From Escherichia phage FL31: a DNA stretch of 64,000 nt. Positions 3,500-6,744 of the stretch are shown here, in pieces; within the stretch, counting starts at the first letter, position 1, and the number at the start of each line of letters is the position of its first letter. A program made the translations under genes and the position numbers. The DNA lies in sequence record PP400782; one strand, 5' to 3'. The notes under the pieces are model-generated. The model saw only the letters and a program-made list of their open reading frames with translations, was not told where the DNA came from and did no database searches.

Positions 3500-4186
3500 T
3501 TACCAGCCTTCCATAGGGAATTCCAGATAAACTTGAGCGTTGACACGAATTTCATTGGTAATCTTTTTAACTCGGTCTGTATTACGAGATACACGTCCAA
3601 ACCAACGCCATCCGTTACTAATTGCACGAGAACCAGTGTGCCATGTTTGCCAATCAAATTGAAGAAGAGTACGGTCTGGAGCTTCCCATTTCTCTAGTTC
3701 GCCTTTTTCGATTTTTTCGAGGACTTCTTTGTGCCACTGGCGATAGATAAGTTCGCCATCAGGAATCTGACTGAACTCTGCAGTTCCTGTTGCAAAATGA
3801 GTAGGACACACATCAGCGTTAACAAGACCAAGAATATGTTCAGACAAATAGCGAGGATTGTCATAGTCAGGTTGTCCTGCAGTAATAAAGTGTTGACCAA
3901 CTGGAATATCAGGGCGTGGAACATCGTCATGGTGATATCCAGGAATAGCAGGGTACCAGCCAGGCATCAGCATGTGGACTCGTGAATCAAATACAACCTG
4001 GTCGGTGTTCCAATCATCCGGCAAGTTCATGATGAAGCTGCGAGTAATAGGACCGCCGTTATTATAAGCAAATTCTAAACTACAGTTGAAGAACATAGGC
4101 TCGTTCTTGATTTTATCATTAGAAATACCGCCGGCAAAACCACCTACTGCACGAGCTTGACTATTAAACACTTTAGAACTATTCAT
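3500..4186 (-). CDS. Hypothetical protein (228 aa)
   Basis: ATG 4184-4186; long ORF in early block; His/Asp-rich motif GYHHDDVP; no family recognised. Confidence 0.55.
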   Translation of the reverse strand: MNSSKVFNSQARAVGGFAGGISNDKIKNEPMFFNCSLEFAYNNGGPITRSFIMNLPDDWNTDQVVFDSRVHMLMPGWYPAIPGYHHDDVPRPDIPVGQHFITAGQPDYDNPRYLSEHILGLVNADVCPTHFATGTAEFSQIPDGELIYRQWHKEVLEKIEKGELEKWEAPDRTLLQFDWQTWHTGSRAISNGWRWFGRVSRNTDRVKKITNEIRVNAQVYLEFPMEGW

Positions 4187-4187
4187 A

Positions 4188-4493
4188 TTATTTTCCTCGA
4201 CATTCTTTAATGAAATTTTCTAGATTGGTAGATTCAATAGCTTTTTTACGAGCTTCTGCGTGTTCTTCTTCGGTCAATTTATGTTTATAATTGACCCAGA
4301 CATTATGGTCGAAACTAGTCGTGGCATATAATAACAAAGCTCCGACGAATAATAAAAACGGTGATAAGAATATACAACCAGGCACACCATCCATACTGTA
4401 AGCCTTTTGTAATACTGCAACAGAAAGAGTTGCGTAAAAAAGTGATGCAAATATTGTTAAAAGACCAATTCGGTTGGTTTCGCCTAATTTCAT
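4188..4493 (-). CDS. Hypothetical small membrane protein (two predicted TM helices)
   Basis: ATG 4491-4493 preceded by GAGGAG RBS and palindromic early promoter. Confidence 0.55.
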   Translation of the reverse strand: MKLGETNRIGLLTIFASLFYATLSVAVLQKAYSMDGVPGCIFLSPFLLFVGALLLYATTSFDHNVWVNYKHKLTEEEHAEARKKAIESTNLENFIKECRGK

Positions 4494-4513
4494 AATATTC
4501 TCCTCATGTTTTG

Positions 4514-4550
4514 GTAGGACTACTATAACATAGTCCTATAATTGTGTAAA
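4514..4550 (-). promoter_or_regulatory. Early promoter with stem-loop (TAGGACT..AGTCCTA around -10 TATAGT)
   Basis: Minus strand GTTTACACAATTATAGGACTATGTTATAGTAGTCCTACC. Confidence 0.55.
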
Positions 4551-4563
4551 CAGTTTTGCGAAA

Positions 4564-5520
4564 TTATTTGAAAGGTTTTACCATATGGAAATTTTGTTTG
4601 AAACGTTTGACGTAATCGTCATGTCCTAAGCTTTGGTACATACTTACTACTTTGCTGTAGTTTTCCCAGGCGTATTCACGGAACCAACCGGAGGTGATGC
4701 TTGTACAGACCTTTTCCAATGCCGTCATAAAACTGGCTTCAGGGTTAATTTTAAAGTCATTAGGAATCTGAGAACGTTCTAATGCTAATACACATGATTC
4801 TTCATATACACCGGCCAATTTGACCATTTCCGGTAATGATTCGAACTTCTCGCGTGAGGTCATGACTTCAGAACCATCTTTCATGTAAAATGTATACGCT
4901 GGACGGTCTGTTAGTGCAATGGCTTCATGAATAGTATCATGGTCATATGTATAGATGTCATCTTTAAAGAATGCGCTTTTAGAAGTGTCAAGAACCGGGT
5001 GAGCATAATTCAAGGTTTCTTTCTGGCGTTTCAGCATAATTTCAGTAAGTTCATCGTTCAGTGTAACACCTTTACCACGAAGATACTGAATATGGTTCAT
5101 AGTCTTTAAAAAGAATGGATTATTTTTCTTGAAACGATGAGACATCTTAATTGCAAGACACATCTCAGGAGTTGCCCAGTAAAACCCGTTAAAACGATCT
5201 TTAGTCAAATTTTTCTTGGCGTATTTTAAAAGGTCATAAGAAGACGTGAAATCTTCAGGAGTGAGTTCACCGACTAATTCACGGACATTAGTGATTGCCG
5301 GAACAATATATGCTTCAAAATGAGTTTCGCGTCCATTATGGAAGCATTTGAAAACTTGGACATCAGGGTTATCTTGGTGAACATATACACCCATCATTTG
5401 ATTTTTGAATGCATTCCAAGAACCTTGGTCCGCAATAAAGTCCCAATCACTATTTTTAATAGCGCTAGAATCAATAAGACCGTGATAGTGAAGTGCACGA
5501 GAACCAATAACTAACATCAT
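4564..5520 (-). CDS. Hypothetical protein (318 aa), possible nucleotidyltransferase-like N-terminus
   Basis: ATG 5518-5520; N-terminal IGSRALHYHG...DWDF loosely resembles G[GS]...DxD; no confident family. Confidence 0.55.
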   Translation of the reverse strand: MMLVIGSRALHYHGLIDSSAIKNSDWDFIADQGSWNAFKNQMMGVYVHQDNPDVQVFKCFHNGRETHFEAYIVPAITNVRELVGELTPEDFTSSYDLLKYAKKNLTKDRFNGFYWATPEMCLAIKMSHRFKKNNPFFLKTMNHIQYLRGKGVTLNDELTEIMLKRQKETLNYAHPVLDTSKSAFFKDDIYTYDHDTIHEAIALTDRPAYTFYMKDGSEVMTSREKFESLPEMVKLAGVYEESCVLALERSQIPNDFKINPEASFMTALEKVCTSITSGWFREYAWENYSKVVSMYQSLGHDDYVKRFKQNFHMVKPFK

Positions 5521-5548
5521 AATATTTTCCTCGGATTAATTCATTAAC

Positions 5549-5800
5549 TTAAATTTCACGACATGCGATATTATATTCATCCCAGAGGTCATCGTGTGAA
5601 GCCTCTACTAATGGAACGATTGTACCATTTATGTCTTCATTATAAGGGCAAATTGTACAATGTGCATCTTCGAATCGGATGCCTTTGTGTTCAGATTTTT
5701 TATAACGCATATCGAATATCTTTGCAAACTTTTCACGAGTAATGGTTTTACCAACCACTTCGGTTCCGATACTTTCGTAATAAATCATTGTGGACTCCAT
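5549..5800 (-). CDS. Hypothetical protein (83 aa)
   Basis: ATG 5798-5800; palindromic early promoter upstream (5817-5846). Confidence 0.5.
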   Translation of the reverse strand: MESTMIYYESIGTEVVGKTITREKFAKIFDMRYKKSEHKGIRFEDAHCTICPYNEDINGTIVPLVEASHDDLWDEYNIACREI

Positions 5801-5808
5801 TTAATTTG

Positions 5809-5846
5809 ATAGGACTACTATAACATAGCCCTATCTTGTTGTAAAC
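5809..5846 (-). promoter_or_regulatory. Early promoter with stem-loop, same family
   Basis: ATAGGACT..AGCCCTAT arms (one mismatch) around TATAGT; GTTTAC at 5841-5846. Confidence 0.5.
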
Positions 5847-5851
5847 TGTTT

Positions 5852-6049
5852 TTAGCAAGAATAACTAGATGATACCCAGCCTTGAACAGTAATACTATTG
5901 TGGGATAATGAGATCGCGTCCTGGAGATTCAGACCTGCGTTATCTTCAATCCATAATGTAACTTCTTCGCGTTCTTCTGTTGCAATTTGGAACAGGTTTT
6001 CTAGAGCAGCTACTGCGGTACGTACAGCACAATCTAATTCACGAGACAT
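5852..6049 (-). CDS. Small acidic protein, paralogue 1 of tandem triplet ending WVSSSYSC
   Basis: 65 aa; ATG 6047-6049 with RBS TAAGGAAACC; C-terminal GWVSSSYSC shared with two upstream paralogues. Confidence 0.5.
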   Translation of the reverse strand: MSRELDCAVRTAVAALENLFQIATEEREEVTLWIEDNAGLNLQDAISLSHNSITVQGWVSSSYSC

Positions 6050-6058
6050 ATGGTTTCC

Positions 6059-6331
6059 TTAGCAAGTGTGAGAAGATGCAACCCAACCACCAGTTTCGAG
6101 GCTCAGGTTGTAGTCATATTGGTAAACGTCCGCCCATTCAGCATAGCCGTTTTTTGTACAACGTTCAAGATCGGCTTTAAGATGTCCGGGTGAATGATAG
6201 GTTCCACCCATACCATAAGCTGGGTACAAGTTGAATGTTGTGTTTTGTTTATCAGCAATTTCTTTGGCAGCCTCAATAGCTGCATAGATTTTTGCTACAG
6301 CTTCGGCCAGTTCGGTTTGTTCTTTAGACAT
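6059..6331 (-). CDS. Small acidic protein, paralogue 2 of tandem triplet ending WVASSHTC
   Basis: 90 aa; ATG 6329-6331 with RBS TAAGGAATC; Ala-rich N-terminal helix; C-terminus GGWVASSHTC. Confidence 0.55.
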   Translation of the reverse strand: MSKEQTELAEAVAKIYAAIEAAKEIADKQNTTFNLYPAYGMGGTYHSPGHLKADLERCTKNGYAEWADVYQYDYNLSLETGGWVASSHTC

Positions 6332-6340
6332 AATGATTCC

Positions 6341-6646
6341 TTAGCACAACGCAGAAGACGAAACCCAAGCACCTTCAGTAATAACGTATCCATTACCTTC
6401 ACGCTTAACATCGCCGCCATTATTTTCAATTTCATCTTTCATCCACTGGGATACGATTTCACCCTTAGGATAATAAGTACGACCGCTACCATAATCACCT
6501 ACAGAAAATGATACGGCATATTGGTCTGCGATCTTTGTTGCTTCTTCTTCGATACGTTCAGCTTGATTCAGAAGTTTATAAATTGCATCTGAAGCGGATT
6601 TGGCATCATTAAACTCTGGTACTTTAATTTCAATAATCTTACTCAT
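6341..6646 (-). CDS. Small acidic protein, paralogue 3 of tandem triplet ending WVSSSALC
   Basis: 101 aa; ATG 6644-6646; early promoter GTTTAC-N18-TATAAT at 6706-6735; C-terminus GAWVSSSALC. Confidence 0.55.
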   Translation of the reverse strand: MSKIIEIKVPEFNDAKSASDAIYKLLNQAERIEEEATKIADQYAVSFSVGDYGSGRTYYPKGEIVSQWMKDEIENNGGDVKREGNGYVITEGAWVSSSALC

Positions 6647-6744
6647 TTTCTACATTCCTTAATAAAGTTTTCGATTGTTTCATTTTCACGTCTAGCTAGG
6701 AGTTCATTATAACTAATCATTTGAGAAGCGTAAACAGCATAATT

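Follow-up and report, generated by a model that had tools for sequence, protein, structure and literature searches.

Nucleotidyltransferases (NTases) of the polymerase-beta (Pol-beta) fold act on targets as different as tRNA 3′ ends (MenT1, MenT3 and MenT4, of the MenT/AbiEii group of bacterial toxin–antitoxin loci), small molecules (ANT(2″)-Ia and LnuA, of ~160–180 amino acids (aa)) and the Tyr, Ser or Thr hydroxyls of proteins (GlnE, GlnD, DrrA and MntA). MenT, RlaP and the ANT enzymes are bilobed; in RlaP (PF10127; NrdC.11 in phage T4), an RNA-ligase-associated enzyme of large phages, the N-terminal NTase lobe and the C-terminal helical lobe form a cleft. Here, we analysed a gene of likewise bilobed design in a stretch of 64,000 nucleotides (nt) from Escherichia phage FL31 (sequence record PP400782; hereafter the window). 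Its 318-aa product is very probably a real nucleotide-transferring enzyme from an uncharacterised, phage-only branch of the Pol-beta fold, judging from residue conservation and a structural model, and its gene is linked across phage lineages to an upstream array of small acidic proteins ending in W-x-x-S-S-x-x-C.

Compared to MenT/AbiEii, the new family matches PF08843 (DUF1814) neither with the FL31 protein at E ≤ 10 nor with any of 73 members at E ≤ 1, and by sequence position it shows no invariant motif-IV-like Asp. Moreover, its C-terminal lobe (C-lobe) has ~100 aa more and H-D-x-x-H, E-E and E-R motifs of its own that are invariant, it is found in phages rather than in bacterial toxin–antitoxin loci, and the proteins encoded upstream, in arrays of one to six with a W..SS..C-COOH tail, are unrelated to MenA/AbiEi. 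The likeness to RlaP extends to one jumbo-phage clade in which the NTase gene lies near those for Rnl1 and PNKP, but neither the query nor the 73 members match PF10127 (Pfam, E ≤ 1), no profile match was obtained, the association with an RNA ligase is limited to 13 of 83 loci, and RlaP has no partner array. As for ANT(2″)-Ia and LnuA, they show no sequence relation to the family (no Pfam match of the query or the 73 members to aminoglycoside or lincosamide NTases) and have no partner proteins. Finally, GlnD–PII and MntA–HepT, which were absent from the results of our structure and sequence searches with the NTase, provide a functional analogy only: in each, an NTase targets a hydroxyl on a small protein that is cognate to it or encoded alongside it. 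The analogy with GlnD includes a helical domain rich in His and Asp (HD domain) next to the NTase, yet the residue modified by GlnD and MntA is Tyr, and the hydroxyls conserved in all partners are here those of a Ser-Ser pair.

A phage-only family with a nucleotidyltransferase lobe

The open reading frame (ORF) runs from ATG to stop on the minus strand (4564–5520; 318 aa plus the stop codon), is the longest one within the first 12 kb of the window and is clearly a genuine gene. Its product starts with MMLVIGSRALHYHGLIDSSAIKNSDWDFI and contains IGSRALHYHG at residues 5–14 and DWDF at residues 25–28, two strings correctly quoted in an earlier sequence-only reading, which had left the strand unstated and had suggested an NTase-like N-terminus. 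The same reading regarded the protein as unassigned, which holds for its function but not for its family, as it matches Pfam DUF7277 (aa 2–101; E = 1e-27; 97 bits for a cut-off of 27), Pfam DUF7275 (aa 120–305; E = 2e-78; 263 bits for a cut-off of 27) and PHROG 2141 (E = 3e-149), all three of unknown function. Searches of NCBIfam, PADLOC and PDB sequences (phmmer and profile searches) yielded no characterised family, the PADLOC anti-phage defence profiles gave 0 families at E ≤ 10, and a Pfam scan of the 73 members at E ≤ 1 added no known family. Matches to PsaB, IZUMO and HisJ were due to chance and were not used.

Mosigvirus phages (RB69-like T-even phages), among them PhAPEC2, share ~96% identity with the window, and the PhAPEC2 counterpart of the NTase gene carries the annotation of an RB69ORF134c homologue. 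The gene is not found in T4. Beyond T-even phages, tblastn recovered homologues in 733 phage records at identities from 99% down to ~25%, with 551 of them covering at least 80% of the NTase length, while a protein database clustered at 90% identity returned 2176 homologues at E ≤ 1e-3. At 50% identity, the family makes up 1587 clusters, almost all of ~300 aa. Since only five matches were found when scanning one bacterial or archaeal genome per species (185,579 species), every one of them on contigs of metagenome-assembled genomes (MAGs), the family is essentially phage-only.

A confident AlphaFold2 model of the protein was built from a 73-sequence alignment (pLDDT 93.8; pTM 0.88). In this model, the N-terminal lobe displays the alpha/beta core expected of Pol-beta-like NTases: a first strand (2–5) is followed by a helix (6–12) opened by G6-S7, then D25-W-D27 leads into a second strand (26–31), before the later strands. 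The hG[GS] motif (I5-G6-S7) hence sits at the junction of the first strand and the helix, while the [DE]h[DE]h motif (D25-W-D27-F) is at the start of strand 26–31. G6, S7, D25 and D27 are invariant in 90/90 aligned homologues, including those of a distant actinophage/Vibrio subfamily, and a third carboxylate, E69, lies in strand 64–73 (E in 84/90, D in 5/90 and N in 1/90 sequences). The gap between S7 and D25 amounts to 17 residues, against 9–13 for the classical G[GS]-to-Dx[DE] pattern, in line with the sequence-only reading, for which the spacing was atypical. Nevertheless, this loop varies in length across the alignment, and the longer spacer is a variation within the Pol-beta fold, with no contradiction of it.

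The closest structural neighbours of the model were MenT1 (structural-neighbour value of 10.0), ANT(2″) (8.7), TglT/MenT3 (8.5), MenT4 (7.8), TM1012 (7.6), an NTase-like protein of Paracoccidioides (7.6), JHP933 (7.4), LnuA (7.2) and the poly(A) polymerase of Megavirus (6.7), and a Foldseek search was in agreement with these NTases. With a predicted NTase fold and a conserved acidic pair, the suggestion of an NTase-like N-terminus therefore stands. That the enzyme is catalytically competent is further argued by the conservation of the three carboxylates and of the G-S motif across 90 sequences down to ~25% identity, which is the pattern of an active enzyme. Pseudo-NTases do exist, but nothing specific favours a catalytically dead scaffold that would only bind partners or nucleotides, and we regard such a protein as very improbable. 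Another idea was the synthesis of a sugar nucleotide for the arabinosyl-hydroxymethylcytosine DNA modification of RB69-like phages; it was dropped because members of the family are present in Phapecoctavirus, Otagovirus and actinophages as well, and because their fold differs from that of sugar-1-phosphate NTases.

The C-lobe (213 aa) is all-helical in the model and very strongly conserved, with K125, H128, K139, H194-D195-x-x-H198, E240-E241, E248-R249, K270, S274, T276 and G278 invariant across the family. It has no significant structural match in the PDB and no profile match.

An upstream array of small proteins sharing a C-terminal tail

Upstream of the NTase gene, the window carries three ORFs (5852–6646) that are the only ones with a W..SS..C ending in 64 kb. 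Two of the three match PHROG 899; as a whole, the partner proteins have no Pfam family and all their database homologues are labelled hypothetical. They are acidic (median isoelectric point (pI) of 4.4; median net charge of −8), and the terminal Cys is the sole cysteine in 72 of 173 partners. Among sequences ~30% identical, the near-invariant positions are the W, S, S and C of the tail, to which most types add a Y-G-x-G-x-x-Y hairpin. In the AlphaFold2 model of partner protein 2 (pLDDT 91), a long N-terminal helix is followed by a beta-hairpin, two helices and a last strand that includes Trp83, while the S86-S87-x-x-C90 tail (S-S-H-T-C) is outside of any regular strand. This model suggests that the partner fold ends in an exposed tag.

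The flanks of the Phapecoctavirus, Otagovirus and Acinetobacter Lazarusvirus homologues were compared first, and the small upstream W-x-x-S-S-x-x-C proteins turned out to be their sole shared neighbours; 80 additional IMG/VR loci were then fetched by profile. Motif-bearing ORFs are found just upstream of the NTase gene in 78/83 viral loci, nearly all on the same strand, with arrays of 1–4 ORFs per locus under the strict W..[SA]S..C motif and of 1–6 under a relaxed motif. The latter is present in 228 of 3480 upstream same-strand ORFs and in 8 of 13,122 ORFs elsewhere, the eight being true family members in divergent orientation from four related loci, while downstream of the NTase gene the count of same-strand motif ORFs is 0/230. 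In L046, L047, L049 and L073 (~10.8–12.9 kb, minus strand), Cys-tailed ORFs (e.g., ...AWCSSSMEC and ...YWDDSGC) are located ~5–6 kb downstream, in opposite orientation, instead of upstream, and thereby depart from the common gene order. An upstream array was again observed in four of the five independent MAG cases.

The linkage spans many genera of Straboviridae (T4-like), Lazarusvirus, Phapecoctavirus, Otagovirus and jumbo phages of ~350 kb. Three paralogue types (YGMGG, DYGxGxTYYP and a type with a double W..SS..C) are common to T4-like phages and Phapecoctavirus; of these, YGMGG extends to Otagovirus, Lazarusvirus and jumbo phages. Because such distinct types recur across lineages, their sequences suggest that array and enzyme form an old unit that was moved between phage lineages. 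In T4, e.2 abuts e.3, so both the NTase gene and the array are missing, and no ORF with the W..SS..C motif was found in 65 kb of that genome.

Short NTase homologues without an array (251–263 aa) occur in actinophages and Vibrio K408. They share a gene of ~100 aa directly downstream (L085 4624–4962, L086 4454–4747 and L088 4620–4985), the products of which look related by eye (C-terminus ...EVKPV.K.I..YE) and might possibly be an alternative partner. In Brevibacillus phage Sundance (L087 3258–3539), the upstream gene codes for an acidic protein of 93 aa that has a helix at its N-terminus and EEEEYSSSYY repeats in its tail, where the association of an aromatic residue with Ser-Ser-Ser recalls W..SSS, but without the terminal Cys.

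Candidate acceptors of the nucleotide

Among possible acceptors, the partner tail was ranked first because diverse ancient proteins keep a single terminal tag beside a single near-invariant enzyme, because this tag seems exposed in the model, and because the partner-less actinophage/Vibrio subfamily, which keeps the catalytic core, has lost specific residues of the C-lobe (R129, R165, Y172, H174, Y190, C243, C272, S277 and R281). From the sequences, a hydroxyl-rich terminal tag on otherwise diverse proteins would be expected if they were several substrates of one enzyme. In the mechanism that we infer, from catalytic activity and nucleotide used to acceptor and biological role, the NTase would be one half of a two-component module and the upstream small acidic proteins (three in FL31) the other half. 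The two-lobed enzyme would hold a nucleoside triphosphate with Mg2+ via G6-S7, D25, D27 and E69, then pass the nucleoside monophosphate (NMP) to a hydroxyl seated in the cleft that the NTase lobe forms with the family-specific helical lobe. The acceptor would be a Ser of the Ser-Ser-x-x-Cys-COOH tail, and the partners, once NMPylated, would be effector proteins acting early in infection. We put forward the Ser-Ser tail as acceptor tentatively, as a candidate with a real chance of being right that may nonetheless well be wrong. As for a complete phage-specific system, in which a single enzyme would attach a nucleotide to the Ser-Ser of C-terminal W-x-x-S-S-x-x-Cys tags on distinct small effectors, it seems to us conceivable but rather doubtful.

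Several points weigh against modification of the partner tails. First, the nearest structures act on tRNA 3′ ends (the MenT toxins) or on small molecules (ANT(2″) and LnuA), and the presence of Rnl1/PNKP 4–6 kb away from the NTase gene in 13/83 loci hints at an RNA substrate. Second, the co-variation between C-lobe residues and partners is based on a single deep phylogenetic split. Third, the literature searched mentions neither the NTase family nor the partner family, and we found no description of the module there. Finally, a protein of 377 aa (P0211) that looked like a fusion of partner and NTase was rejected as a gene-calling artefact, because an in-frame TAG ends the small ORF (...PACW*) and the NTase starts five codons further on. 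The corresponding DNA (L096 107–1240) comes from an ENA metagenome contig, and the small ORF ends there in ...PACW rather than in Cys; the read-through would be due either to gene calling with an alternative genetic code or to TAG recoding by the phage.

The main rival explanation is that the enzyme transfers nucleotides to RNA 3′ ends, most plausibly the acceptor ends of tRNAs, whether to repair ends damaged by host defence nucleases, in the manner of RlaP or CCA-adding enzymes, or to block host tRNAs as MenT does. The small acidic partners would then be MenA1-like inhibitors, regulators or mimics of RNA in a basic cleft. Apart from the tRNA-modifying MenT toxins being the nearest structures, this reading has in its favour that the active site of MenT1 is blocked by MenA1, also a small helical protein whose gene lies upstream, that RlaP, with the same two-lobe plan, adds NMP to an RNA 3′-OH, and that one jumbo-phage clade and Aeromonas phages encode Rnl1 and/or PNKP 4–6 kb upstream of the NTase. 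However, such RNA-repair linkage is restricted to these clades, and neither Rnl1 nor PNKP is encoded within 6 kb of the NTase gene in the FL31 window; likewise, the DUF1814/AbiEii and RlaP families are not matched. Furthermore, K125, which is in the first helix of the C-lobe, is followed by no invariant acid 15–22 residues on, where motif IV of MenT would be expected (the motif III Lys and motif IV Asp of MenT1 are K137 and D152); the next one in terms of sequence position is E168. Lastly, a toxin with up to six ancient and individually conserved antitoxins in tandem would have no precedent, and the W..SS..C tail, as the only universal feature of the partners, would be left unexplained. On balance, we find a role in RNA end modification possible, though on the unlikely side.

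A transferase for small molecules similar to ANT(2″)-Ia or LnuA, acting for instance on host metabolites, signalling nucleotides or compounds resembling antibiotics, would fit the corresponding structural neighbours, in which case the partners would be separate early genes. We consider it improbable, as it would not explain the oriented and near-universal linkage to W..SS..C proteins across unrelated lineages, while the 213-aa C-lobe is far larger than those of ANT(2″) or LnuA and no family of aminoglycoside or lincosamide NTases is matched.

Whether the acceptor is the partner tail or RNA, the enzyme might also be bifunctional, with a second, metal-dependent HD-like phosphoesterase site in the C-lobe. 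The succession H128 ... H194-D195 ... E240/E241/E248 does resemble the H...HD...D arrangement of HD-type domains, but in the C-lobe it comes without a profile or fold match, and we think a second site unlikely. In GlnD, UMP is added to the small protein PII by the NTase and removed from it by the HD domain, whereas the E. coli CCA-adding enzyme combines an NTase with an HD 2′,3′-cyclic phosphodiesterase; accordingly, a bifunctional enzyme could be either a GlnD-like writer/eraser or an NTase with HD-based end healing, like the CCA-adding enzyme.

Genomic setting in FL31 and significance

In FL31, the NTase gene belongs to a block of seven ORFs (3500–6646, minus strand) lying between the homologues of e.2 and e.3 and absent from T4, which comprises ORFs of 228 and 101 aa, the NTase gene, an 83-aa ORF and then ORFs of 65, 90 and 101 aa (Table 1). 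The first 101-aa ORF (4188–4493, minus strand) belongs to PHROG 9798 and resembles a membrane protein, with a weak match to a PHROG of that kind. The promoter match in the gap beyond the NTase stop codon would drive this ORF along with the 228-aa one. Because the 83-aa and 228-aa ORFs are kept only in subsets of the fetched loci (13 and 24, respectively), they were not counted as core, and the 83-aa ORF is probably not part of the core module. The neighbouring 101-aa ORF (4188–4493) was likewise left outside the core. Regarding other phages, the jumbo contigs L097 and L099 (1–5 kb and 9–14 kb) encode an Rnl1-type RNA ligase and PNKP upstream of the module, then two Metallophos phosphoesterases, a DNA/RNA ligase and a ClpP-like protease downstream of it. 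At its start, L097 also has a gene of the Gad2 family (PF26128).

Table 1. Position of the NTase gene, its partners and associated signals in the FL31 window.
Feature	Position	Strand	Remarks
NTase-like gene, 318 aa	4564..5520	minus	RB69ORF134c homologue; DUF7277 + DUF7275; PHROG 2141
Shine–Dalgarno GAGGA, 7 nt before the NTase-gene ATG at 5520	5528..5532	minus	sequence
N-terminal lobe, aa 1–105, predicted Pol-beta nucleotidyltransferase fold	5206..5520	minus	
Codons of the NTase-lobe signature	G6-S7 5500–5505; D25-W-D27 5440–5448; E69 5314–5316	minus	
C-terminal lobe, aa 106–318, all-helical in the model	4567..5205	minus	DUF7275 part: nt 4606–5163
Partner protein 1, 101 aa, pI 4.6	6341..6646	minus	DYGSGRTYYP type; PHROG 899; ends GAWVSSSALC
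Partner protein 2, 90 aa, pI 5.0	6059..6331	minus	YGMGG type; PHROG 899; ends GGWVASSHTC
Partner protein 3, 65 aa, pI 4.2	5852..6049	minus	ends GWVSSSYSC
Acidic ORF, 83 aa, between array and NTase gene	5549..5800	minus	PHROG 3723; C-x-x-C (HCTICP)
Promoter-like TTTACG-17-TATAAT, upstream of the partner array	6706..6734	minus	consensus match only
Promoter-like TTTACA-17-TATAGT with TG, upstream of the 83-aa ORF and NTase gene	5817..5845	minus	consensus match only
T4-early-like promoter match TTTACA-17-TATAGT with TG	4522–4550	minus	in the 70-nt gap past the NTase stop

The NTase family is large and essentially confined to large virulent phages, including Mosigvirus and Phapecoctavirus, two genera common among isolates of E. 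coli phages. By tying an intact NTase to tagged small proteins, the linkage joins two sets of hypothetical proteins in one hypothesis. If the partners are substrates, the module would, as far as we know, add a new type to the protein-modification systems of phages. In its most radical version, the NMP-Ser would be eliminated and the terminal Cys would close a thioether (lanthionine-like) ring, which, if true, would give virulent phages a new way, dependent on nucleotides, of producing ribosomally synthesised and post-translationally modified proteins. If the partners instead regulate an RNA-end transferase, the module would be a phage counterpart of the MenAT toxin–antitoxin or of RlaP-type RNA repair.
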